From: Candidatus Spongiisociaceae bacterium
GTDB taxonomy: Bacteria > Actinomycetota > Acidimicrobiia > Spongiisociales > Spongiisociaceae
Direction of reading: 5' to 3'
Length of the DNA: 64,000 nt
Assembly (NCBI GenBank): GCA_965202665.1
Contig: OZ241841.1
Coordinates: 2,464,001 to 2,528,000 of the forward strand
Below the pieces are notes generated by a model. That model had not been told where the DNA came from and searched no databases. It was given only the letters and a program-made list of their open reading frames with translations. This document shows, piece after piece, positions 3,971 to 18,806 of this stretch; position 1 is the stretch's first letter, and each line of letters begins with the position of its first letter. A program made the position numbers and the translations under genes.

Positions 3971-4789
3971 CTAAGGAGAGCCCAGTTTCAGCCGTTTAGC
4001 CTTGCCGTACGCGGTAATTTGCGAATGGGGATGGCCGGTCGGGGATAAATGATCTCTGAGAAGGGCAAACGCCCGGTCCGGACGAACCCACATTTTCGCC
4101 AGCCGATAGTTCTTAGGATCAACGCGTATTTCTATCTCGCCAAGGTTCAGTAATCTGTCTTTTCCTTTTAGTTTGGCGGGGAAAATTATTTTTTGAGCGG
4201 GGGTCTGGGTTTTGTTATACTGTTTCGAAGTATCCGCCCCAGTATTTGCGCATATTATGTCTATTACTTCATCGGAGTCAAAAACATGAAAGTGTTTATC
4301 AGCAGGTCTGGCGGTTGATGGATCAAACGAGGGAGGTAGTATACCCAAGTACTCCACTTCTCCATCAAACAATGCTTTGTGCCAAAATGCCTTGAATACA
4401 TTTTCTTTTTGGAGTTCATCGGATAGTTCACGCATAGGAGGCTGGAGAGCCTGCTTGTAGTAGTCTCGGTTGTCGAGCATTGTTTCTCGATCTTTTGGAA
4501 AAACTCGAAGACAATCTCCAAGTAACGTCGCCACATTGCCAATGCCTTGGAGTATAGTGTTGCTATTCAAGCGAGATTCAGCATATAGGAAGACTTGCCA
4601 TGACCTTTTTCCTGACTTGACAGAGTGCCTGCCGTCATTGAAGTCGACAACATCTGTCTTACCAGTGTGAGACCCGCGAGTTACACGGCCGCCTAAAATG
4701 CCGGCATAGTCATCTTCGTTGGTATGCCCGGCCACCTTTTTCATTTGAGCCTCATCAGACTCCATACCTTTATAGCCCGGAGGTTTCAT
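3971..4789 (-). CDS. Putative type II restriction endonuclease (PD-(D/E)XK-like)
   Basis: 'KTDVVD...SVKSG' nuclease-like motif; start overlaps the MTase stop (TAATG); lower GC than the housekeeping genes. Confidence 0.6.
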   Translation of the reverse strand: MKPPGYKGMESDEAQMKKVAGHTNEDDYAGILGGRVTRGSHTGKTDVVDFNDGRHSVKSGKRSWQVFLYAESRLNSNTILQGIGNVATLLGDCLRVFPKDRETMLDNRDYYKQALQPPMRELSDELQKENVFKAFWHKALFDGEVEYLGILPPSFDPSTARPADKHFHVFDSDEVIDIICANTGADTSKQYNKTQTPAQKIIFPAKLKGKDRLLNLGEIEIRVDPKNYRLAKMWVRPDRAFALLRDHLSPTGHPHSQITAYGKAKRLKLGSP

Positions 4790-5826
4790 TAGAAGCCCTC
4801 TTTGACTATTAGCAGTTCGTGGGAATTCTTAACATGATGATAGCTGCCGTTCACGATTCTGTTCTTACCAATCCGAGTTTCCCCCTGACCCAAGGTGTAT
4901 TGCCATTCCACTTCTACAATAGTAAATCTGCTATACCATTCTCTGATTGCCTCACAATCATTGTAAGAAAGAATGAACCCGCCTTGATGGTCATAAAGCA
5001 AGTCTCGTAGCAATTCGTGGTCAAAGCCGTTATGATGAATCGGGAAGTTACGTTGCGGATAGATACCTTTGAACATACGACTGTCCCCATCCAGATAATA
5101 GGGAGGGTCGCAATACAAAAAGTCCTCTCGGTGGTTGGGAATCGTGTTTTCAAAGGAACCTGTGCCAATTTTTAGTTGCGGGCAACGAAAGGAACGAACC
5201 TTTTCCACCAAACGCTCGAAGCGAGTAACATCTTCATATATTTTTGACATCCAACCCAGGAATCCTGGTCCGTAGCTCAGATTGTGGTTAAACCAATAGT
5301 GGGCTGCCAGATCCAGGTTGTCATCAATGGGGGCAACTCCCTCCCAGTGACCTCGGAGGCGTTTCTTGACCAGAGAGTATGTGGATTTGTCGGGAGACCA
5401 TTCCAAGATGCGCTCCGCCAACCTGAGGGGGGAATAAAGTTGCTTCTGCCAATAATTGGTCAAAATATCGAAAACATCGTATCCTTGCACGCGGATGCCC
5501 AGTTCTTTGGCGCAGGCAATTTCCACCGAACCGCCGCCGAAGAACGGGGAAACCAATTTTTCCACGTTGTCCGGCATACGCTCGATGACATGACCGACCG
5601 CTAGGCTCTTCCCGCCCGCGTAGCGCAAGGGGAGGCCGTTGTAACGCCGGTAGCGATAGCGGCCCCGGCTCTGCAACTGCTGGAGGAATTCCTGTCTGTC
5701 GGTCATGGTCTGCGCGAAGAGACTAGTCGCCCCCCCGCTCCCGGCGGGTAAATCCCGGCGGGACCCCTCCCGACCCCTTCGGCGGGCGGCTTTTGCCGGC
5801 ATCGTACGGTTTTTCTCTACGGTCAT
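4789..5826 (-). CDS. DNA adenine methyltransferase (Dam/D12 class)
   Basis: 'LRYAGGKS', 'SPFFGGGS' SAM-binding motif, catalytic 'DPPY', C-terminal 'ELLI'. Confidence 0.92.
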   Translation of the reverse strand: MTVEKNRTMPAKAARRRGREGSRRDLPAGSGGATSLFAQTMTDRQEFLQQLQSRGRYRYRRYNGLPLRYAGGKSLAVGHVIERMPDNVEKLVSPFFGGGSVEIACAKELGIRVQGYDVFDILTNYWQKQLYSPLRLAERILEWSPDKSTYSLVKKRLRGHWEGVAPIDDNLDLAAHYWFNHNLSYGPGFLGWMSKIYEDVTRFERLVEKVRSFRCPQLKIGTGSFENTIPNHREDFLYCDPPYYLDGDSRMFKGIYPQRNFPIHHNGFDHELLRDLLYDHQGGFILSYNDCEAIREWYSRFTIVEVEWQYTLGQGETRIGKNRIVNGSYHHVKNSHELLIVKEGF

Positions 5827-5918: not shown

Positions 5919-6590
5919 TCAACCGATGGAGCCGCATTGCGCGATTGCGACGATTACGACGAATATCAAGACGGCGACGCCGAGGAGGCATCCGCAGGCG
6001 GCGGCTTCGGACACTTCGCTTGTCTCCGGTTCGGGTTCGGGTTCGCTTTTTAGGCTTTCTTGCATTCTTTGACGGGCGGCCTGCTCCGCCAGAAGCTCCT
6101 GCCGGGCCCGTTCCGCTAGCCGTTCTTGCCGGGCCTGTTCGGCCAAACGGGCTTGCCGGGCTTTCTCCGCCTCCTCCCGTTTTCGCCGTTGCTCGTACGC
6201 TTCAACGGTCCGCCGGGCCTGGGATACCGGCTGGGGCGGGGCGGGGCGTTGCGCCCGCCGTTCATCGTATCGTTGGATGCCCGAACCGGGGCTTCCCCTG
6301 AAATTCTTCGCCGTTCCGGGCGACGCGTAGGGCCGGGTTCGGGAAGGCCGGGTTCCCGTTTCCCGGGGATGGGCGGCTGCGTCGCCGGCGAGGGACCGGT
6401 CGTAGGTGCGGCGTCGGCCGGGGTCGGACAGCGTTTCGTAGGCCTCGTTGATTAGGTTAAATCTGGCGTGGGCATGGCGGTCGTTCGGGTTGCGGTCCGG
6501 GTGGTGGCGTTTGGCGCGGCCGCGGAAAGCCTGTTTGATTTCCTCCTGGCTTGCGGTCTGTTGCACTCCCAGAATTTCATAATGGTTCAT
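5919..6590 (-). CDS. J-domain (DnaJ) protein with C-terminal transmembrane anchor
   Basis: 'HYEILGV...EIKQAFR...HHPDRNP...INEAYETLSD'; hydrophobic C-terminus. Confidence 0.85.
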   Translation of the reverse strand: MNHYEILGVQQTASQEEIKQAFRGRAKRHHPDRNPNDRHAHARFNLINEAYETLSDPGRRRTYDRSLAGDAAAHPRETGTRPSRTRPYASPGTAKNFRGSPGSGIQRYDERRAQRPAPPQPVSQARRTVEAYEQRRKREEAEKARQARLAEQARQERLAERARQELLAEQAARQRMQESLKSEPEPEPETSEVSEAAACGCLLGVAVLIFVVIVAIAQCGSIG

Positions 6591-6609
6591 ATCAGGTGCG
6601 GGCTGAAAG

Positions 6610-7095
6610 TTATGCGCAGTTGGCGATGATGCGGACTATGAAAACAACGAGAACCACCAGGCCCCACAATGCGGAGATTCTGGATCCGCCGCTTCTTTTG
6701 GGTTCGGGTTTGGTTCTGACGTTTTCCCGCATTCTTTGACGGGCGGTTTCTTCCGCCTGCCGGGCTTGCCGCTCTCTTTCCTTCACCCATTGCTCGTACG
6801 AGCCGGGGGCCGGGCGGGGGGCCTCCCAGGGCGGCGTGGGCGGTGGGGGCGGGGTGGGGGTGTTGTCGTTGAGGGCAAGGCTCAGGTCGTAGGTGCGGCG
6901 CTGGTCGGGGTCGGACAGCACCTCGTAGGCCCGGTTGATCCGGTTGAATTTGGCGTGGGCCTTGGGATCGTTCGGGTTGCGGTCCGGATGGTGGCGCATG
7001 GCGCGGCGGCGGAAAGCCTGTTTGATTTCCTCCTGGCTCACCGTCTGTTTCACCCCCAGAATTTCGTAGTGGGTTTTGCGCCGCGTGGTTCTCAT
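6610..7095 (-). CDS. J-domain (DnaJ) protein with C-terminal transmembrane anchor
   Basis: HPD motif J domain, Pro-rich linker, C-terminal hydrophobic helix; paralog of 5919..6590. Confidence 0.85.
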   Translation of the reverse strand: MRTTRRKTHYEILGVKQTVSQEEIKQAFRRRAMRHHPDRNPNDPKAHAKFNRINRAYEVLSDPDQRRTYDLSLALNDNTPTPPPPPTPPWEAPRPAPGSYEQWVKERERQARQAEETARQRMRENVRTKPEPKRSGGSRISALWGLVVLVVFIVRIIANCA

Positions 7096-7210: not shown

Positions 7211-7287
7211 TGGCATGCGTGGAGGGACTCGAACCCCCATCTTCCGGTTTTGGAGACCGACGCTTTACCCGATTAAGCTACACGCAC
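7211..7287 (-). tRNA. tRNA-Trp (CCA)
   Basis: Reverse complement GTGCGTGTAGCTTAATCGGGTAAAGCGTCGGTCTCCAAAACCGGAAGATGGGGGTTCGAGTCCCTCCACGCATGCCA: cloverleaf, anticodon loop CTCCAAA, GTTCGA T-loop, encoded CCA end. Confidence 0.95.
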
Positions 7288-7406: not shown

Positions 7407-7697
7407 CTACTGGGGGATTCGATAGCCCAGATGTTCCAAAACGGCGTCGATCTCGGCTTGTTCTTCCTCGGTAACCATCAGGCCACTCTCTTCTATGAAA
7501 GCATCCAGTTCGGCGACCGCCTCGGCAACGCGTTGGGCTTTCTCCTCGGGGGTTTCGGTGTCTTCGTGTTGGAAGACGCTCAGGTCCAGGCCGAGCCGTT
7601 CCGCCCATTCCTCGCGGGTTTCGTTTTCGTACCCGTCGGGGATGTGCCTTTTCACCTGGTAGGTGCCTCCCGGGCTAGTCCAAACCTCCACCGCCAT
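7407..7697 (-). CDS. VapB-like antitoxin paralog A7 (N2-C3 module type)
   Basis: 96 aa, RBS aggaagg; C-terminal 'AVAELDAFIEESG..TEEEQAEIDA' helix resembles actinobacterial antitoxins found upstream of PIN genes. Confidence 0.6.
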   Translation of the reverse strand: MAVEVWTSPGGTYQVKRHIPDGYENETREEWAERLGLDLSVFQHEDTETPEEKAQRVAEAVAELDAFIEESGLMVTEEEQAEIDAVLEHLGYRIPQ

Positions 7698-7713: not shown

Positions 7714-8041
7714 TCAGACGGAGAAGGTTTCTAGGTCGCAACCGAGGGAGGTCATTATTTCGGTGATGTCGGTTTCGTCGCTGGTGACGATTCTGTCCCC
7801 CCGTCCTAGGGCACTGACCACCACTGAGATGTCCACCACATCGGATGATCCGGTTTTGTGACTGGCTGCGCCAACCTGTTTGGCCAGGTTTTCATCCAAC
7901 GGTGTCTTCGTGTTGGAAGACGCTCAGGTCTAGGCCGAGCCGTTCGGCCCATTCCTCGCGGGTTTCGTTTTCGTACCCGTCGGGGATGTGCCTTTTGACC
8001 TGGTAGGTGCCCCCCGGGCTGGTCCAAACTTCCACCGCCAT
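7714..8041 (-). pseudogene. Deletion fusion: 5' half of antitoxin (7900..8041) joined out of frame to 3' half of vapC (7714..7903)
   Basis: Junction at shared tetramer cggt (7900-7903); antitoxin frame stops after 49 aa. Confidence 0.8.
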
Positions 8042-8173
8042 GGCAACCTCCTTATCGTTGCTACTTGTAATTTACCCGGCTTTGGAAAATACTTTGCCAG
8101 CCCCTGACCAGGCCTTTTGCCGGCTCAATGTCCGGGATGGCGCCTACCTCGCCCGCGTTGTTGGCAATGCCGG

Positions 8174-8482
8174 TCATTCTTGTTCCGGTTCTCCGTCGGG
8201 GTTGCGGAAGCCGAGGTGTTCCATCAGGGCGTCTAATTCGGCCTGTTGCTCCGGGGTGCGTGTCCAGCCCTGTTCTTCAAAGAATTTCTTGTTTTCGGCG
8301 ACGGCCTCGGCGATACGCTGGGCTTTTTCCTCCGGGGTTTCTGGGTCTTCATGTTGGAATACGCTCAGGTCTAGGCCGAGCCGTTCGGCCCATTCCTCGC
8401 GGGTTTCGTTCTCGTATCCGTCGGGGATGTGCCTTTTGACCTGGTAGGTGCCTCCCGGGCTGGTCCAAACTTCCACCGCCAT
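8174..8482 (-). CDS. VapB-like antitoxin paralog A5 (N2-C2 type)
   Basis: 102 aa from ATG 8482 with aggagg RBS; followed by a decayed vapC start stub. Confidence 0.6.
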   Translation of the reverse strand: MAVEVWTSPGGTYQVKRHIPDGYENETREEWAERLGLDLSVFQHEDPETPEEKAQRIAEAVAENKKFFEEQGWTRTPEQQAELDALMEHLGFRNPDGEPEQE

Positions 8483-8614
8483 GGCAAACCTCCTTTCGCG
8501 GCTTACGTACAATATACCCGGCTTTTGGAAATACTTAAACAAGCCCCTGACCAGGCCTTGCTGGCTCAATGTCCGGGATGGCACCGACCTCGTCCGCGTT
8601 GTTGGCAATGCCGG

Positions 8615-8722
8615 TCAGCGTTTCACCTTCGCCGAGTCGGAGACGCGCATTCCCAGGTGCTCAAAGAGGGCCGCGAGTTCGGCTTGCTCCTCCGCGGAAA
8701 GGGTCAGGCCTTCCTCTTTCTC
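8615..8722 (-). pseudogene. 3' remnant of antitoxin paralog A4, truncated by ISL3
   Basis: Encodes KEEGLTLSAEEQAELAALFEHLG, matching the C1 module. Confidence 0.7.
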
Positions 8723-9156
8723 GACCCCCGCAACGAGCAAAAACTGACCGGCCTCCTCCAAGCAGGAGACCCCCGCGGGGAGGTACGCGACGCATGGCAC
8801 GCTAAAGAAACCGTCCGGGGAATCTACCAAACCCCTACCCCCTCCGAAGGCGACCAATACCCCCGCCTGCTCGCCGCGGAACTCCAAGACCAATCCCGCT
8901 CCCCCGAACTCAACCAACTCGGACGCACCCTCCACCACCTGGCACTCCCAGATCGTGGCCTGGCATCACGCCCAAGTAATCAACGGACCCACCGAATCAG
9001 CCAACAACCTAATCAAACACGTCAAACGCGTCGCTTTCGGATTCCGCAACTTCCGCAACTACCGAACCCGCATCCTCTTCTACGCAGGAAAGCCCAACCC
9101 GAACCTACTCCCCAACCTCACCCCCCCCCCCCAAAAAAAAAAAAATCCGAAGAGCC
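8721..9156 (+). mobile_element. ISL3-family transposase 3' remnant with right end
   Basis: 'AWHAKETVRGIY...LGRTL' and, after a frameshift, 'NGPTESANNLIKHVKRVAFGFRNFRNYRTRILFYAGKPN'; ends ...tccgaagagcc (reverse complement GGCTCTTCG, typical ISL3 end). Confidence 0.85.
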
Positions 9157-9280
9157 GTTTTGCCAGGTTTTCATCCAACGGTTACACTTGGCATTGTTTC
9201 AATTCATGGAAGGGAACCATTCGGGGGTTGCGTCGTTCGGCGGCGATCAGGGCACCCGCGTCGTAGGTGACGCCGGTCAT
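9157..9280 (-). pseudogene. vapC remnant (internal deletion, premature TAA, cut by ISL3)
   Basis: MTGVTYDAGALIAAERRNPRMVPFHELKQCQV*. Confidence 0.8.
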
Positions 9281-9585
9281 TCCTGCGTTACCTCGTCGTC
9301 GGGGACTCGATAGCCCAAGTGCCTAAAGAGGGCAACTAATTCCGCATGCTCCTCCGCGGAAAGGGTCAAGCCCTCCTCCTCTCTGAAAGCCTTCAGTTCG
9401 GCGACCGCCTCGGTGATACGCTGGGCTTTCTCCTCGGGGGTTTCGGTGTCTTCGTGTTGGAAGACGCTCAGGTCTAGGCCGAGCCGTTCGGCCCATTCCT
9501 CGCGGGTTTCGTTTTCGTACCCGTCGGGGATGTGCCTTTTGACCTGGTAGGTGCCCCCCGGGCTGGTCCAAACTTCCACCGCCAC
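9277..9585 (-). CDS. VapB-like antitoxin paralog A3 (N2-C1 type)
   Basis: 102 aa, GTG start, ATGA overlap with vapC remnant. Confidence 0.6.
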   Translation of the reverse strand: MAVEVWTSPGGTYQVKRHIPDGYENETREEWAERLGLDLSVFQHEDTETPEEKAQRITEAVAELKAFREEEGLTLSAEEHAELVALFRHLGYRVPDDEVTQE

Positions 9586-9611
9586 AGCAAACCTCCCTTT
9601 CAGCCTTTTCG

Positions 9612-9659
9612 TCAGCGGCCAGCGGTTAACGCGCCCGCATCGTAAGTCACGCCGGTCAT
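9612..9659 (-). pseudogene. 15-codon vapC stub
   Basis: MTGVTYDAGALTAGR*. Confidence 0.7.
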
Positions 9660-9964
9660 TTTTGTTCTGGTTCTCCGTCGGGGTTGATGAGGCCGAGGTA
9701 TTCCATTACGGCGTCTAATTCGGCTTGTTGTTCCGGGGTGCGGGTCCAGCCTTGTTCTTCAAAGAATTTTTTGTTTTCGGCGAGGGCCTCGGCGACGCGT
9801 TGGGCTTTTTCTTCGGGGGTTTCGGTGTCTTCGTGTTGGAAGACGCTCAGGTCCAGGCCGAGTCGTTCGGCCCATTCTTCGCGGGTTTCATCCTCGTAGC
9901 CGTCTGGCGTATAGGAGATGACCCGATGGGTGCCTCCCGGGCTGGTCCAAACTTCAAATGCCAT
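9656..9964 (-). CDS. VapB-like antitoxin paralog A2 (N1-C2 type)
   Basis: 102 aa, aggagg RBS, ATGA overlap with vapC stub. Confidence 0.6.
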   Translation of the reverse strand: MAFEVWTSPGGTHRVISYTPDGYEDETREEWAERLGLDLSVFQHEDTETPEEKAQRVAEALAENKKFFEEQGWTRTPEQQAELDAVMEYLGLINPDGEPEQK

Positions 9965-9980
9965 AGCGAACCTCCTTGTT

Positions 9981-10268
9981 TCAGACGGAGAAGGTTTCTA
10001 GGTCGCAACCGAGGGAGGTCATTATTTCGGTGATGTCGGTTTCGTCGCTGGTGACGATTCTGTCCCCCTGTCCTAGGGCGCTGACCACCACTGAGATGTC
10101 TACCACATCGGATGATCCGGTTTTGTGACTGGCTGCGCCAACCTGTTTTGCCAGTGTTTCATCCAACGGTTCCACTTGGCATTGTTTCAATTCATGGAAG
10201 GTAACCATTCGGGGGTTGCGTCGTTCGGCGGCGATCAGGGCGCCCGCGTCGTAGGTGACGCCGGTCAT
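9981..10268 (-). pseudogene. PIN-domain toxin with in-frame 33-aa deletion
   Basis: 95 aa versus 128-aa intact copy; lacks WIVGNGIRPVVPAGVLAQVWRDGSGRQAPLAQI. Confidence 0.75.
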
Positions 10269-10573
10269 TCCTGCGTTACCTCGTCGTCGGGGACTCGATA
10301 GCCCAGGTGCTTAAAGAGGGCAACTAATTCCGCATGCTCCTCCGCGGAAAGGGTCAAGCCCTCCTCCTCTCTGAAAGCCTTCAGTTCGGCGACCGCCTCG
10401 GAGATGCGTTGGGCTTTTTCCTCTGGGGTTTCGGTGTCTTCGTGTTGGAAGACGCTCAGGTCCAGGCCGAGTCGTTCGGCCCATTCTTCGCGGGTTTCAT
10501 CTTCGTAGCCGTCTGGCGTATAGGAGATGACCCGATGGGTGCCTCCCGGGCTGGTCCAAACTTCAAATGCCAT
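10265..10573 (-). CDS. VapB-like antitoxin paralog A1 (N1-C1 type)
   Basis: 102 aa from ATG 10573 with aggagg RBS; ATGA overlap with deleted vapC. Confidence 0.6.
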   Translation of the reverse strand: MAFEVWTSPGGTHRVISYTPDGYEDETREEWAERLGLDLSVFQHEDTETPEEKAQRISEAVAELKAFREEEGLTLSAEEHAELVALFKHLGYRVPDDEVTQE

Positions 10574-10689
10574 GGCGAACCTCCTTTCGCGGTTAGGTAC
10601 AATATACCTGGTTTTGGAAATAATATGATCCACCTCTGACCAGGCATTTTACCGATTCAACGTTTGGGACGGCATCGGGCTTCGCTTTT

Positions 10690-11076
10690 TCAGATCGCGT
10701 AGATTTTCAGGTTGTGTCCAAGTGAGGCCATGATTTCCTTGATGTCGTCCTCATCGCTGGTCACTATTCTATCCCCGCGGCCTATGGCGCTGACGACTAC
10801 TGAGATGTCCACCACATCGTTTGATCCGGTTTTGTGACTGGCTGCTCCTACCTGTTTTGCCAGAGTTTCATCCAACGGTTCCACTTGGCATTGCTTCAAG
10901 ATCTGAGCAAGCGGCGCCTGGCGGCCGCTCCCATCTCTCCAGACTTGGGCGAGGACCCCGGCGGGCACCACCGGCCTGATCCCATTGCCAACGATCCATT
11001 CATGGAAGGTAACCATTCGGGGGTTGCGTCGTTCGGCGGCGATTAATGCGCCTGCGTCGTAGGTCACGCCGGTCAT
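10690..11076 (-). CDS. vapC: PIN-domain (VapC-like) toxin, only intact copy
   Basis: 'TYDAGALIAAER', 'VLAQVWR', 'DVVD', 'IVTSD..DI' acidic PIN motifs; 128 aa. Confidence 0.85.
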   Translation of the reverse strand: MTGVTYDAGALIAAERRNPRMVTFHEWIVGNGIRPVVPAGVLAQVWRDGSGRQAPLAQILKQCQVEPLDETLAKQVGAASHKTGSNDVVDISVVVSAIGRGDRIVTSDEDDIKEIMASLGHNLKIYAI

Positions 11077-11140
11077 TCTTGTTCTGGTTCTCCGTCGGGG
11101 TTGATGAGGCCGAGGTGTTCCAGCAAGGCGTCTAGTGCGG
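11073..11140 (-). pseudogene. 3' remnant of the antitoxin directly upstream of intact vapC
   Basis: Encodes ALDALLEHLGLINPDGEPEQE* (C2 module); N-terminal modules missing. Confidence 0.7.
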
Positions 11141-11262
11141 CGGAGGGTCGGCGGGGGTTGGTTGGTCGGGTTCGGTTCTAGTCATCGGGTTCGTCCTCCG
11201 TTTCTATCGTCCGGCGGCGGCGTAGGACGCCCATTCTGTGGCGTTATTATTCGTCCTCCGTT

Positions 11263-12501
11263 CTATCGGTCGGGCCAGCCCCAGTAAGCGGCGCCGGCGG
11301 CGTAGAGGGTGTCGTCGGCTTGTTGAAACAAGGCGGCGTATTCGTCGGTTCCGTAGGCGGCGGCGGCGGCGGCGAACTCCGCCGCCGCGGCGGCGAACCC
11401 GGCGGATAATTTCGCGAGGGCGGCGGCTTGGGCAAGGTCGCCGGGGTCGGCGTATTCAGCGGTGGCGGCGGCGTATTCAGCGGCGGCGCGGCGGGCGGCG
11501 GCGGCGTACTCCGCGGCGTATTCAGCCGCCGCGGCGGCGTACTCCGCGACGACGGCGGCTTCAGCGGCGGTGTGGTCATAATCATAATATGATGACCAAT
11601 ATTGTGGATGTCTCGCGGCGTCTTCCGTAGCCCATAAAGCATTGCTGGTGGCCACGTCGTATTGAACGACACCGCCGTAACTACCACTACCGGCCGGGCG
11701 GCGTGGGTTTATAGTGGAGTCGGTGGCGATGGTGTAGTAGGCGGTGAGGGCGGCGGCTCCGGCGGCGGCGTATTTAGTGGCTAAAGCGGCGAGTTCGTCG
11801 TGGGACGTGGCGTCGTGTCCGTGGTCGTTGTAGGCCAGGGGTTCAAAGACCGCCCATCTGGTGTGCATGTACAGGTAGCTACCTTCGCAGAAACCTCTTA
11901 AGGCGGCGTATCCCGCGAAGGCGGGGTCGGTGGAGTAGTCGGCGGGGTCGGTGGAGTAGTCAGCGGATGTCAAGGGGCGGCGGCCGTCGTAGTAGGTGAA
12001 CCAGCCAGCGGCGTAGAGTTCGCCGCAGGCGGCGGAGTAGGCGGCGGTGGCGAGCCGGTAGGCAACTGCCGCCGCCGTTTTTTGTTTAGGGTAGTGGTCG
12101 GCGGCGCGGGTAGCCCATTCGGCTCCGCGGGCGGTGTAGTAGATGACGGATTCCCTTGTCGTGGTCGGGGTCGCCGGGCGGGTAGTAGTCGGGGCGGTCG
12201 GGGCGGGTTGTAGTCCGTCTATTCCGTAGCGGAGGAAATGGGCTACATCCGCCCGCGTCCAAGAATCGTATCGGTCGTACAGGCGGCGGATTACTATCCG
12301 GAATTCGTTTTCTGATAGTTCCCGGTCGGGTTTAAACGACCCGTCCGGGTATCCCCGGAATAGCCCCTCCGCCACCGCCCAGCGGATAGAATCCGCCCGT
12401 TCGTGGTCGTCCGGTACATCGGGAAATCGTATCTGGGCGATTACCGGAACGGCTAGGGCTATCAGAGCGACCGCTACGCCCAGGCGTTTTACGAGTTTCA
12501 T
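11263..12501 (-). CDS. Secreted SLH-domain protein with Ala/Tyr-rich C-terminal repeats
   Basis: Signal peptide MKLVKRLGVAVALIALAVPVIA; SLH motif 'FPDVP...GLFRGYPDGSFKPD'; Pro/Thr linker; AAAEYAA repeats. Confidence 0.75.
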   Translation of the reverse strand: MKLVKRLGVAVALIALAVPVIAQIRFPDVPDDHERADSIRWAVAEGLFRGYPDGSFKPDRELSENEFRIVIRRLYDRYDSWTRADVAHFLRYGIDGLQPAPTAPTTTRPATPTTTRESVIYYTARGAEWATRAADHYPKQKTAAAVAYRLATAAYSAACGELYAAGWFTYYDGRRPLTSADYSTDPADYSTDPAFAGYAALRGFCEGSYLYMHTRWAVFEPLAYNDHGHDATSHDELAALATKYAAAGAAALTAYYTIATDSTINPRRPAGSGSYGGVVQYDVATSNALWATEDAARHPQYWSSYYDYDHTAAEAAVVAEYAAAAAEYAAEYAAAARRAAAEYAAATAEYADPGDLAQAAALAKLSAGFAAAAAEFAAAAAAYGTDEYAALFQQADDTLYAAGAAYWGWPDR

Positions 12502-12744
12502 TCCGTACCTTTCATCCGCCCGCTGGGGTTCTAGTCGTAAGGATATTAGCCAATAGTCGGCGACCACCCGCCGTCATCGCCGCGCCGTCTGTTCGGCGGG
12601 TAAAACCCTCCGGGTCGGGCTAACCGGCGGGGCGGCGGGGGTTCGTTCCCCGAATCGGCGTGCCAATATAACCGGCTTTTGGAAATACTTGAACAAGCCC
12701 CTGACCAGGCATTTTGCCAATCCGCACCCAGATTGTTGCGCGGG

Positions 12745-13698
12745 TTAAGCGTTGACTATTACTACGTCCGCCAGCTGGTCGTGGACGGCGCGGTCGTTTT
12801 GGTTGACAAACGGGGACAGGATGTATACCAGCGCTACAAACGACAGCAACACCCAGAAGGAGGTTACGATGGCGAAAATTATCAGGCATGCGCCGAAGAC
12901 CTGCGCCGCCCGGGTCAGCCCCCCGGGACGGCGGCCCCGCCTTTTCAGGAAGAAGCGCAACGCCGAAGCGACCAGCAAAATCATGATTCCCCATGACAGC
13001 AGATCGCCGGTGGGGGTGACGGCCAGCAGGCCGGGCAAAGCCAAAGACATCCGCGCTCCCGCCTCCCACCATCCCGGGCTCCCGCCGTCCGCCCCCACTA
13101 CTTTGACGCGGGCGGCCATCATTCCCAAAGTCCGGCCCCGCAGTCCCACCAGGAACGTCTCATAAGCGAATCCGATCAGGACGGCCCAGAAAAACGTCCT
13201 TCCGGCCGTGTCCGCGTCCGCCCCCAGCGCCCGGGCGGCCAGCACCGCGGCGCCTACGATTGCCAGATCGATCAAACGGGCGGCCAGTTGCCGGACGGGG
13301 GAAGCGAAAGAACCCCTTCGCGGAGGGTCGTCCCTCCGGTCGCCGCCGGACTCCCGGCCCGCATCCGACTTTGGTTGGGAGAAAGGTTGGCCGGACCCGG
13401 TGGGGTAGTCGGCGCCGGTGAAAGCCGAGCCTTCGTTGCGGGCGTAAGAGGACTGGCCGGTCGCCGCCGCGGAACGCATGCGGTCGTATTCCCGCCGTTG
13501 TTCGGGGTCGGACAGCACCGAATAGGCTTCGTTGACTTTTTTGAAACGTTCGCCCGCCCGGTTCCCGGAGCCGGGGTTGGCGTCCGGGTGGTGCTTTTTG
13601 CTCAGCCTCCGGAAAGCGGCTTTGATTTCCTCCGGGGAGGCGTCCGGGCCTACCCGCAGCGTCTGGTAAAAGTCGGCGGCCGCTGGGCGGGTCCTCAC
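12745..13698 (-). CDS. J-domain + RDD-family membrane protein
   Basis: N-terminal J domain (HHPD); 'ASPVRQLAARLID', 'GRTLG', 'HDQLADVVIV' RDD motifs. Confidence 0.8.
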   Translation of the reverse strand: MRTRPAAADFYQTLRVGPDASPEEIKAAFRRLSKKHHPDANPGSGNRAGERFKKVNEAYSVLSDPEQRREYDRMRSAAATGQSSYARNEGSAFTGADYPTGSGQPFSQPKSDAGRESGGDRRDDPPRRGSFASPVRQLAARLIDLAIVGAAVLAARALGADADTAGRTFFWAVLIGFAYETFLVGLRGRTLGMMAARVKVVGADGGSPGWWEAGARMSLALPGLLAVTPTGDLLSWGIMILLVASALRFFLKRRGRRPGGLTRAAQVFGACLIIFAIVTSFWVLLSFVALVYILSPFVNQNDRAVHDQLADVVIVNA

Positions 13699-15860: not shown

Positions 15861-16178
15861 TTACCGTTTCAGTTGTTTGTATTCGTTGATTAGCGCGTGG
15901 AGCGTTTTCTCTGTCGAAACAACAATCCAAAACTTCGGCCCATCCTCGCTTTGTTGCTTGGTTACCCTTTTGGCAACGCGAGAAGGGGTTTTGAATATTT
16001 CGTCATCTTGCGACACGTCATTTATCCAGGTTCCGTCTTCATTTTTACCATACCGCAATAGTTTGATATGACCTTGCTCATTAACTATAGCTTCTGCTGA
16101 TGCAGGTCCCGGCGTCTTTCGTGATGACCTAAGCAGGTCCCCGACATGCAACAACTCGGCACTGATGAGATCATGCAA
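15861..16178 (-). CDS. RAMA-like domain; separated C-terminal half of a duplicated GIY-YIG-RAMA gene
   Basis: Paralogous to C-terminus of 16998..17924; out of frame with upstream GIY-YIG half. Confidence 0.6.
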   Translation of the reverse strand: MHDLISAELLHVGDLLRSSRKTPGPASAEAIVNEQGHIKLLRYGKNEDGTWINDVSQDDEIFKTPSRVAKRVTKQQSEDGPKFWIVVSTEKTLHALINEYKQLKR

Positions 16179-16189
16179 CTTTACACGTT

Positions 16190-16789
16190 TTATTGTATTT
16201 TAGGTTGCTTGGATAAAACATCCTTAGGTTTTTGGACGTCGATCCTTTGTTTTGGTTTTTTATCCAGATCTACGCCCAGGATAGAAAGAAGGGAGAAAAT
16301 GTTTGCGGCATGGTGTCTGTATTTGTCCCATACGTCCATGTATACCTCTGGTCGTCCCGTGGGTCGGGCCGAATTGGCCAGGTTTATGCCAGAGAGGGAT
16401 GACAATTTCTCCCATAGCACATGTTCCATCACGGCCGCCTCTTTTTGCGGTAGGGAAGATTTACTCTCGTCACCGGTGAAGCACACGGCGATATGCCATT
16501 CAGAAATCGCATCCTTGGGGTTTTGGTAATGATTTTTGAGTCGCTGGCCGAGGCCATCTTTGGCTTCAGCGGATTTACCCACATAAATGGTCTGCAACCC
16601 GATATCGTTTGGAACTATATCAACCAGTAGGTAGGTGCCCGGTGTTTCCAAGACACGAGTTTTGGTGAGGTCGGACCCTGTTTGCAGGGCGTGTCGCCAC
16701 ACAACTACCAGGCGGGGCCGCGGTTCCTCGTCGGTACCGATTGAGACGACGCCTCTTTTGACGAAGGCGAAAATAAATTCTTTCGACAA
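16190..16789 (-). CDS. GIY-YIG-like nuclease domain (N-terminal half of split copy)
   Basis: 'GTYLL...IYVGKS...QRLKNH...W..AVCF...E' pattern. Confidence 0.65.
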   Translation of the reverse strand: MSKEFIFAFVKRGVVSIGTDEEPRPRLVVVWRHALQTGSDLTKTRVLETPGTYLLVDIVPNDIGLQTIYVGKSAEAKDGLGQRLKNHYQNPKDAISEWHIAVCFTGDESKSSLPQKEAAVMEHVLWEKLSSLSGINLANSARPTGRPEVYMDVWDKYRHHAANIFSLLSILGVDLDKKPKQRIDVQKPKDVLSKQPKIQ

Positions 16790-16997
16790 GGGAGTTCCCT
16801 TCTGTTGCTTGTCCTATACTCTTTCCAGAATATGGAGGCAGTATAGCATAGCCGAGTGGTGGCGTCGTTTATTTGTTTAGATGGACAAATCGGATTCAGC
16901 GCCTCCGCTGATCCCGCTTTACGGACTCTTCGGATTTGAGGGGCGGGTCTTGGTGCAAATTGGCGATGTTCGCATAGACGCGGTTGCGACAAACGGG

Positions 16998-17924
16998 CTA
17001 CCGGCCGGAACGCAAGTTGAGCCGCTGGTAGTCGTCGCCTATATCGGCCAGGGTTTTGCCGGACGATGCGACTACCCAAAAAGTCCAGCCATTGGGATCG
17101 CTCTTGCCGCCTGCATCTCTTATTACTTTACCGCCTGCACCGGATGGCGAATCATAAACAAGCCTCTGTTTGGAGACATCGTTTAACCATCGCCCTTCAT
17201 CATCTTTGGCATATCTAAGTAGCATTATATTTCCTTGTATATCGTTAATTTTTGCTTCAGCTTGTTGCGCCCGATTCTTGCGGGATGACTCCAGAACCTC
17301 CCCTACTTGCAACAGTCCGGCAACGAGCAGATCTGAAACTGTTTCTTCACGTCGCTTGGGACTCTTACTCTTTTGTTCGGGAGGGGGATCGCTGGGCCGT
17401 TTTGGAATTTGGGTTGTCTTATCCAGCAACACTCCTAATGCTCCCAGCAAAGAGACGACCGTTTGCTGGTGCGCTTTCAGATTCTCCCATTTGGTATTGG
17501 GGAGGCTGGGTTCGATGGGAGTTTGTTGGTTGGCGAGGGAAATGCCGGGGCGGGCGGTCAAGTTCTCGTACAGCAAATATTCCAGAGCACGGGATTCCAC
17601 CTGTCCCAACGTGCTGTTTCTATCATCTCCGGTGAAACAAACAGCTATTAGCCATTCTGAAATATTGGCAAGAGGCGTAATACAGTGCTGATGGATTCTT
17701 TGGTTGATGAGAGTTTCCGCCGACCTGCCCACATATAGCGACTGTTTGCCGTCTTTCCCCGGAATCAGATCCGCCAGAACATAGACTCCCGACTTGTCCG
17801 GAAAATCCGGTTTGGGTTCTAAGGCGTGCCGCCACAGCAGGGTGATGTGCGGTTCGGGTTTTTCACCGGTCCTGACCGAGACGATGCCTCTTTTGAGAGG
17901 GGTGAAAATAAATCTTGAGGACAA
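16998..17924 (-). CDS. GIY-YIG nuclease fused to RAMA-like domain
   Basis: 'SGVYVL...LYVGRS...QRIHQH...LE' plus 'VSDLLVAGLLQVG...YDSPSGAG...NGWTFW...KTLADI'. Confidence 0.7.
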   Translation of the reverse strand: MSSRFIFTPLKRGIVSVRTGEKPEPHITLLWRHALEPKPDFPDKSGVYVLADLIPGKDGKQSLYVGRSAETLINQRIHQHCITPLANISEWLIAVCFTGDDRNSTLGQVESRALEYLLYENLTARPGISLANQQTPIEPSLPNTKWENLKAHQQTVVSLLGALGVLLDKTTQIPKRPSDPPPEQKSKSPKRREETVSDLLVAGLLQVGEVLESSRKNRAQQAEAKINDIQGNIMLLRYAKDDEGRWLNDVSKQRLVYDSPSGAGGKVIRDAGGKSDPNGWTFWVVASSGKTLADIGDDYQRLNLRSGR

Positions 17925-17987
17925 GGGCGGCTCCCTTCTGCGGCTTTCCAGAATTTAGGAAAGCGTAGCAGGGGGGTGTGACGGGTT

Positions 17988-18806
17988 TCAGGAAACTTTG
18001 CTTCGTTGGCGGACGGCTTCGAATAGTAGAACTCCGGTTGCCATGGCGGCGTTTAGGGAATCCGCCTTTCCCGCCATGGGGATTCTGGCTTGGGGGTGGC
18101 CTTGGTTTAGCCAGGCGGGGGTCAGGCCCAGTTGTTCGGAGCCTATAACTATCGCCGTCGGGCCTGTCAGGTCGGATTCCCAGTGGGGGGCGGGGGCGTT
18201 GGGGCGGGCCAGCAACGGCGCTACTCCTCGGCAGCGCAGCCATTCCCGTGTTTCATCGGCGGGGGCGGTCGCCACCGGGACCGTGAACAGGGAGCCCACC
18301 GAGGAGCGCACTACGTTTGGGTTGAACAGGTCGGTGCGGGGGTCGGCGGCTATCACCGCGTGCGCCCCGGCGGCGTCGGCGGTGCGCAGCATCGTTCCCA
18401 GGTTGCCCGGTTTTTCAATGCCTTCCGCTACCAGAATCAGCATCGGCCCGGTTTGGTCCATCCGGTTCTCCAGGCCGTCCAAGCCGGCGGGGAAATGGGG
18501 GGCTACCGCCAGCAGGCCCTCCGGCCGGTCGCGGTAGGCGGCTTTGCGGAACGGCCCCTCGGCCAGATGAATCAACCGGGCCCCGGCTTCGGTCAGGCGT
18601 TTTATCAGGGCCGGCTCGTTCACTCCCAGAAACAGGTTTTCGCACACGTACAGTTCCGATATTTCCAGCCCCGCCCCGGCGGCTTTGGACAGTTCCCGAA
18701 ATCCCTCGATTATGAAAGCCCGCTCCCCGTCGCGGTGGCGGCGGGAGCGCAGACGCACCAGCCGTTTCACCTTGGGGTTGGCGGGGGAAATGATTACATC
18801 GGACAG
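17988..18806 (-). CDS. TrmH/SpoU-family RNA methyltransferase (start approximate)
   Basis: 'EKPGNLGTMLRTADA', 'IGSEQLG', 'IPMAGKADSLN'. Confidence 0.9.
   Translation of the reverse strand: MSDVIISPANPKVKRLVRLRSRRHRDGERAFIIEGFRELSKAAGAGLEISELYVCENLFLGVNEPALIKRLTEAGARLIHLAEGPFRKAAYRDRPEGLLAVAPHFPAGLDGLENRMDQTGPMLILVAEGIEKPGNLGTMLRTADAAGAHAVIAADPRTDLFNPNVVRSSVGSLFTVPVATAPADETREWLRCRGVAPLLARPNAPAPHWESDLTGPTAIVIGSEQLGLTPAWLNQGHPQARIPMAGKADSLNAAMATGVLLFEAVRQRSKVS

Follow-up and report, generated by a model that had tools for sequence, protein, structure and literature searches.

The closest described relatives of the gene array considered here are the type II toxin–antitoxin (TA) pairs of the VapBC kind. 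The array lies in a window of 64,000 nucleotides (nt) (G000:C1:2464001-2528000), the whole stretch of DNA that we analysed, which is part of a 2.77-Mb single-contig genome. On the minus strand it holds seven copies of a VapC-fold PIN gene (T, the putative toxin) and eight copies of a partner gene (A) for a protein of about 100 amino acids (aa). With VapBC it shares the PIN/VapC fold, the small upstream partner, the overlapping stop and start codons and the invariant Asp residues. It differs in that A has no recognisable ribbon-helix-helix (RHH) or other DNA-binding domain, T carries Gln44, even the best relatives of solved structure are just 12-20% identical to T, and the genes form tandem arrays with an excess of partners, which are mosaic. 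Recombination-driven amplification in a TA conflict has a parallel in phage T4, which in experimental evolution against toxIN reportedly amplified an antitoxin (10.1101/2022.04.14.488369); that is phage counter-defence and a different TA system, whereas here we deal with a chromosomal protein pair. A literature search, beyond whose reach most subscription papers lay, turned up no account of mosaic antitoxins in tandem arrays of VapBC-like genes.

Two other kinds of system are relevant. In chromosomal TA loci undergoing erosion the toxin is lost before or with the antitoxin, leaving orphan antitoxins (PMC13617665; PMC7192599); TA pseudogenes in Photorhabdus affect the toxin only in 185 cases, both genes in 186 and the antitoxin only in 8 (PMC13617665). 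Those studies compare single loci across strains, whereas here the different states stand side by side. Because several of them share one array with an apparently live toxin, the constraint on the order of loss is relaxed for spare antitoxins. The orphan immunity arrays of the Vibrio cholerae type VI secretion system (T6SS) also combine few toxins with many protective genes, toxin remnants at junctions and mosaic genes common to lineages (PMC5361080). In our array the gene order is reversed, the toxin is small and VapC-like rather than a delivered effector, and distinct specificities are not evident. No secretion family was found among the 16 local open reading frames (ORFs) scanned, and no genome-wide search was made for one. 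Toxin-first loss is ordinary; recurring antitoxin-rich arrays with swapped C-terminal halves are a fresh variation on a known theme.

Our best explanation, to which we give roughly an even chance, is that the array was built by recombination, that A copies were added or kept for antitoxin dosage, and that surplus T copies were trimmed. The C-terminal helical hairpin of A would bind and block the PIN nuclease, and recombination among units would add and reshuffle A copies. Since no DNA-binding domain can be recognised in A, autorepression of the operon is improbable and gene dosage would set the ratio of antitoxin to toxin, so that each extra whole T would be costly. Junctions that lose T but spare A and its leader would then be retained. 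The whole T, which has lost its own upstream A in this strain, would depend on downstream A copies acting in trans. The structure of the units, the lesions, their recurrence in relatives, the mosaic partners and purifying selection on the A sequence are observed; toxicity of T, its binding by A, expression of the copies, the absence of autorepression and ongoing selection are the inferred part of this explanation.

Each repeat unit consists of a leader, an A gene (96-102 aa) and a T gene whose start codon overlaps the stop codon of A. In the window 1/7 T copies and 5/8 A copies are whole. All five whole A genes are in frame with a purine-rich ribosome-binding site (RBS), the one at 9585 starting with GTG; the last unit consists of A at 7697-7407 with no T. 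The original prediction held that toxin copies were inactivated by several different lesions while the antitoxins stayed intact. Its account of the lesions stands (Table 1). No PIN ORF other than that at 10690-11076 is full length (128 aa, with a Pfam PIN match above the cut-off at E=6e-6), the copy at 9981 has lost exactly 99 nt in frame (residues 27-59), the 15-codon stub lies at 9612-9659, and the copy at 9157-9280 combines the same 99-nt deletion with TAA at codon 33 and truncation by an ISL3 insertion sequence (IS). The decayed start stubs at 8177 and 8618, described as fused to the next promoter, run into the leader type that trails the full T, and the 7900 deletion does lie at a 4-nt microhomology, CGGT. 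The five antitoxin ORFs likewise have the start, RBS and frame ascribed to them.

That the antitoxins stayed intact overstates the case and is refuted by three broken copies. The A remnant at 11073-11144 has lost its 5' part and is the cognate partner of the only whole T; that at 8615-8719 lost its 5' part beside the IS; and that at 7892-8041 was cut after codon 47 by the 7900 deletion. The lesions are also of distinct kinds but not all independent, as two were shared by descent. The 99-nt deletion is one event present in two T copies, and the 8177 and 8618 stubs are one event (93% identity over 60 nt), with 5 and 7 differences, respectively, from the T start in 28 nt; the A upstream of the 8177 stub is intact. 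In our reading the distinct first lesions number four in T only (the 99-nt deletion, the 9659 stub, the 8177/8618 stub and the terminal loss), one in A only (at a gene with an SLH domain) and two in both genes (7900 and the IS-adjacent break), and the TAA and the IS struck a T copy that already carried the 99-nt deletion. Not every stub need be the remains of a complete copy, as some may mark where a partial duplication or displacement ended.

Sponge and marine metagenomes are among the sequencing runs with a matching stretch, none of those listed being an RNA run, and the names of database relatives indicate the Acidimicrobiia. Contigs of two runs from two studies (X1 and X2, either of which may itself be the source of the assembly) show no differences from the window over 8017-8390, 8458-8763, 10544-11027 and 11079/11087-13000, and for junctions bridged by run contigs we reject an assembly artefact. 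None of the run-contig matches listed bridges the 7900, TAA or 99-nt junctions; the order of the units rests on the single-contig assembly, because no listed contig spans the whole array. The deletion allele, encoding a 95-aa PIN, is found as five distinct database proteins. Two of the three A breaks are strain-specific, because in runs X4 and X9 the A gene continues where the IS lies in the window, and X9 joins the orphaned leader (12664..12713) straight to an A start (joint 8503-12660), skipping the SLH gene. This leader likely once drove the first unit of the array, the SLH gene now lying between them. The SLH gene, missing also at the orthologous locus of a related genome (G001), is likely a strain-specific insertion.

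We found no sign of integron-like or site-specific building: a palindrome-like motif of the leader is not enriched genome-wide (47 occurrences against 39.8 expected), and the 16 local ORFs scanned include no integrase. The leaders were not flagged in a sigma-70 scan (3 sites against 1.8 by chance).

T scores 27.3 bits against PF01850 (cut-off 23.6), and the best structural matches of its model are all VapC. The top six, 5x3t, 9h6a, 5ed0, 5ecd, 3zvk and 6ifc, are tied at Z 14.0-14.9, with 5x3t_B at Z 14.9 and a root-mean-square deviation of 2.6 over 123 aligned residues. When solved structures were searched by sequence, T alone gave 0 matches and the best match with a profile was a VapC at E=0.88. 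VapC toxins have four conserved acidic active-site residues (PMC6118392). Our alignment comprised 94 proteins (the window T and 93 of the best 120 of 365 matches, excluding short, frameshifted and extended forms); among those listed, D7, D87, D90 and D108 are present in 94/94 and E15 and D111 in 93/94. Position 44 is Gln in 93/94, and because Glu is expected there, toxicity of T is likely rather than proven.

In the T model the 33-residue deletion would take out core strand 36-38, helices 39-45 and 51-59, and Q44, and two of the five deletion alleles have also lost an Asp that is invariant in 94/94 listed full-length proteins (the equivalent of D7 in one and of D108 in the other). The 95-aa form is likely a pseudogene product. 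Of the two states proposed for it, non-toxic or dominant-negative, these losses disfavour the second, and the protein is probably simply dead. Whole PINs are under purifying selection, with ratios of non-synonymous to synonymous substitution (dN/dS) of 0.09-0.30.

The partner is probably an antitoxin, a view suggested by gene order and by profile links between its C-terminal hairpin and RHH partners. A is small and acidic and matches no Pfam or NCBIfam family above cut-off; 66 candidates of similar length include 61 homologues, and none of these is named. Its model (predicted local distance difference test, pLDDT, 74; predicted template-modelling score 0.47) begins with a beta-hairpin, continues with two short helices and ends in a helical hairpin. 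In fold searches for A, Foldseek returned 0 matches at E<=0.001 and the best Z among 48,161 chains was 3.0. Atlas features assign it to hypothetical clusters only (0.89-0.90), with a low recognition score. Scans of metagenome contigs with the A alignment and with T gave 593 and 304 pattern matches, respectively, none of them confirmed as a locus.

The 4-nt overlap of A stop and T start occurs in the window, at a second locus of the same genome (G000) and in three related genomes (G001, G004 and G013). A lies directly upstream of, and overlaps, 6/6 other whole PIN genes of the clade in these genomes, and a broken A (A0) precedes the seventh, in the window. More distant PIN loci have a small upstream partner in 21/21 cases examined, of three types. 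Residues 46-94 of A align with the type that accompanies the PIN genes most closely related to T (hhalign P=95%, E=3e-8), weakly with a second type (P=9%) and not directly with the RHH type (P=0.4%, nil). Each of the first two types can in turn be aligned with RHH-type partners at the C-terminus of the latter (P=75% and P=93%, respectively), the underlying alignments being small (5-8 rows for the sister types), and some relatives of the RHH-type partners are named RHH regulators. The N-terminus of A has no recognisable DNA-binding domain and does not align with the RHH part of the sister partners. We infer that A shares a toxin-binding hairpin with these partners and that its N-terminus has been replaced. 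Among the sister loci, N-terminal partner domains vary by lineage and the C-terminal hairpin is common; two loci with another partner type (L038 in G018, L045 in G020) are tandem with two whole pairs, and L044 in G011 is arranged partner-toxin-partner.

It is also conceivable that A serves wholly or chiefly for something other than neutralising a toxin: the PIN protein would be weak or non-toxic, A would have a role of its own selected for dosage, and the PIN copies would be dispensable passengers. The lack of a family for A, Gln44, and an N-half unlike that of RHH partners yet conserved between window copies (non-synonymous to synonymous polymorphism, pN/pS, 0-0.3) would all fit, and of 45 M. 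tuberculosis VapBC toxins assayed in M. smegmatis only 21 showed toxicity (PMC6118392). Counter to this, every whole PIN of the clade has A upstream or an intact A in the same array, a small partner sharing the hairpin precedes PIN at all sister loci examined, and the whole PINs are themselves maintained by purifying selection. We consider this alternative very unlikely.

The dosage explanation draws its support from recurrence in relatives. A was matched in 5/41 genomes, with full-length copies in four; 4/28 other genomes of the family have a match, G019 only a weak C-terminal one, and 300 other genomes sampled from the class have none. The G001 locus reads A-stub, A-stub, A-T. The second G000 locus (L026, 2542658-2543844; 68 kb from the window array) reads A, A-T and is presumably neighboured by a helicase-like gene and the start of a cell-division cluster. 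G004 has one locus with A-stub, A-T, A-T and a broken pair and another with A, A-T, and G013 has a single A-T. The 20 units at six loci in four genomes comprise ten with A only, six with both genes, three with neither and one with T only (sign test of A-only against T-only units, p=0.012, the units not being independent). Units of a partner plus a toxin stub occur in three genomes (G000, G001 and G004), and in all three the junctions repeatedly fall immediately after an A stop codon and immediately ahead of the leader or RBS that follows. Both neighbouring A genes are spared at 7/11 junctions against 1.8 expected (P=3e-4), under a crude uniform model that places deletions of the same estimated lengths evenly on a unit of 807 bases, with the terminal loss excluded and two lengths guessed.

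By flanking genes, the G001 locus is orthologous to the window array and one G004 array to the second G000 locus, whose partner-partner-toxin layout is common to two genera; G013 shares its downstream flank with that G004 array. The terminal 96-aa form of A is found as 12 near-identical whole proteins among 14 database entries fetched, the window's own included, in a search that detects near-full-length proteins only.

Several results weigh against the dosage explanation. Three of the eight A copies are broken, and in the window alone the difference between A and T is not significant (5/8 against 1/7, Fisher p=0.12; junctions 3/6, P=0.08). A null based on gene length leaves the junction count unremarkable (P=0.41), and the excess of A-only units falls to p=0.06 by array (5/5) and p=0.25 by genome (3/3). 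Because of the flank orthology the six loci represent about three independent sites. Two full-length T (P0067, P0068) appear to be present in a closely related assembly, together with a frameshifted T, a deleted T and seven A, of which six are full length and one is frameshifted, the grouping of these proteins being indirect; with one G004 array that has two whole T, this means that a single toxin is not a rule. Gln44 and the nil match of A to RHH partners also count against it. Finally, dN/dS is 0.17-0.41 across all ten pairs of intact window A genes, which indicates purifying selection on the A sequence, and 0.07-0.18 for the three measurable broken T copies against the whole T. Because the broken T values are equally low, the signal is mostly older than the breaks, and the comparison of antitoxin with toxin that the original prediction proposed as a check does not discriminate.

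Many of these results would be expected from ordinary birth-and-death, in which a recombination-prone pair duplicates, harmful unneutralised T copies are purged first, and spare A genes are neutral leftovers that decay later. Toxin-first decay is the norm in published work (PMC13617665), two of the three A breaks are strain-specific, and where the terminal orphan A can be placed uniquely the strains differ by three synonymous and two non-synonymous changes, too few to show selection. Arguing against simple decay are the repeated placement of junctions between the A stop and the next leader or RBS in three genomes, the layout conserved in orthologous loci of two genera, and the 12 near-identical terminal-type proteins. 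We regard birth-and-death as unlikely. Selection against toxin dosage, as first proposed, is accordingly plausible but also the expected outcome of decay; selection for antitoxin dosage cannot be demonstrated from the window alone, and its case comes from the relatives and the 7/11 junctions.

The original prediction also allowed for selection on antitoxin diversity, and here the partners are indeed mosaic. Among 16 intact A genes the N-halves cluster by locus and the C-halves do not. The most similar copies share 92-99% of their N-half nucleotides within G001, within G004 and within the second G000 locus, whereas one C-half class (C1) unites six copies from four genomes and two genera (ultrafast bootstrap 96). 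The N- and C-half trees, midpoint-rooted for display only and with no claim as to donor or order of events, reject each other's data (approximately unbiased, AU, test p=2e-57 and 2e-5). C1 and non-C1 copies occur together in 4/5 multi-unit arrays; one G004 array has a single class.

These patterns raise the prospect that several C-terminal binding cassettes on a common N-half neutralise different incoming PIN variants. Specificity of some VapBs is tied to their C-terminal 30 residues (PMC7354431). The toxins do not follow, however: they group by genome and not by partner class, and a toxin-partner co-phylogeny in which C1-paired T were forced together was rejected (AU p=3e-8, 8 toxins). Toxins behind C1 and non-C1 partners are 92-93% identical over residues 1-26 and 60-95. 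This mismatch between toxins and partner classes weakens the case for an antitoxin repertoire, as does the lack of an identified mobile vector, and we hold such a repertoire to be improbable. In an orphan immunity array of the T6SS type, each protective type would be expected to match a distinct toxin type; no such matching is seen here, although specificity could still lie at single residues. That cassettes were gained by sequential displacement of old toxins, as in those arrays, would account for the toxin remnants at junctions (PMC5361080) and seems to us similarly doubtful. The broadest version, also a long shot, is that sponge-symbiont actinobacteria keep cassette-like arrays of a VapB-like antitoxin without a DNA-binding domain, with an N-half that is homogenised and a toxin-binding C-half that is swapped and persists as an ancient polymorphism across genera; such arrays would form a repertoire that grows to meet new VapC variants as they arrive, and a type II TA counterpart of orphan immunity arrays. 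The diversity of the partners is real, but it is not mirrored in toxin clades.

Whether orphan antitoxins are debris or selected has been argued mostly from scattered single loci. This array offers whole, orphan and broken copies together with one apparently live toxin. Its near-identical N-halves carry at least three natural variants of the C-terminus, which form a ready panel for kill-rescue assays of cross-specificity, and the array is a case for studying control of a TA pair whose antitoxin may be devoid of a DNA-binding domain. Should the copies prove silent or neutral, it would be an ordinary, well-documented decay series.

Table 1. Features of the array and its borders, in window coordinates and from the upstream end of the minus strand.
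Position	Strand	Feature	Remarks
12664..12713	-	Orphaned, promoter-like leader with conserved TATATT hexamer	Matches leaders at 8510, 10599, 8067 and in G001
11263..12567	-	SLH-domain gene between leader and first unit	Pfam SLH E=8e-9
11073..11144	-	A0, broken A, last ~23 codons, C1 class, in cognate position of whole T	tblastn 77% over 22 aa; in-frame stop 14 codons upstream
10690..11076	-	Sole full-length PIN gene, 128 aa	Pfam PF01850; model pLDDT 96
10574..10689	-	Leader with RBS	
10265..10573	-	Whole A, 102 aa, non-C1 C-half, likely antitoxin	
9981..10268	-	PIN copy with in-frame 33-codon deletion, likely pseudogene	
9656..9964	-	Whole A, 102 aa, C1 C-half	
9612..9659	-	15-codon PIN start stub	
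9277..9585	-	Whole A, GTG start, non-C1 C-half	
9157..9280	-	PIN copy, same 33-codon deletion as 9981 copy, TAA at codon 33, cut by IS	
8720..9156	+	3' fragment of ISL3 element	DDE_Tnp_ISL3 E=1.6e-11; 86-93% to other copies in genome
8615..8719	-	Broken A, last ~34 codons	Continues into upstream A half in X4 and X9 (joint 8718-9776)
8580..8618	-	PIN start stub, decayed and without start codon, joined to next leader	
8174..8482	-	Whole A, 102 aa, C1 C-half	
8140..8177	-	PIN start stub, decayed, of common origin with 8618 stub (one event)	
7892..8041	-	Broken A, codons 1-47, then out-of-frame junction	
7714..7900	-	PIN 3' half from codon 67 (67-128), behind 4-nt microhomology junction	
7407..7697	-	Terminal whole A, 96 aa, no PIN gene behind	
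7211..7287	-	tRNA-Trp(CCA), second copy in genome, array boundary	

Some minor features of the broken units may be recorded. Beside A0, an ATG at 11185 with a strong RBS opens a 17-codon frame (11132-11185, minus strand) that overlaps the remnant out of frame. A sequencing slip joining the two by frameshift is ruled out, since contigs of two runs are identical there, and the frame is likely the start of another deleted gene. The left part of the ISL3 fragment was deleted together with adjoining array DNA. Its end (9121-9145) reads 12 C followed by 13 A, against 6 C, T and 4 A in three other copies; this is slippage or an assembly error, and run contigs break there. A 107-codon ORF (8615-8938, minus strand) begins antisense within the IS fragment and enters the last 34 residues of the broken A in frame; these contain most of the putative toxin-binding hairpin, and the fusion is probably due to chance.

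The array is bounded by a DnaJ-RDD gene and the SLH gene on one side and by the second tRNA-Trp on the other. The C-terminal part of the SLH protein is long, repetitive and rich in Ala, Tyr and Glu, with no family assigned to it, and the tRNA-Trp is 86% identical over 59 nt to the genome's other copy. Three DnaJ-domain genes flank the array (5919-7095 and 12745-13698), a tandem pair, 83% identical over 206 nt, and one RDD fusion. A low-GC pair (~50%) at 3971-5826 encodes a type II DNA methyltransferase (PADLOC E=2e-112) and a 272-aa neighbour of no assigned family, possibly an endonuclease, and suggests a variable island next to the tRNA-Trp. At the edge of a further low-GC stretch (16001-18000), a 105-aa ORF (15861-16178) has a partial PADLOC match to PDC-S14 (E=3e-8).

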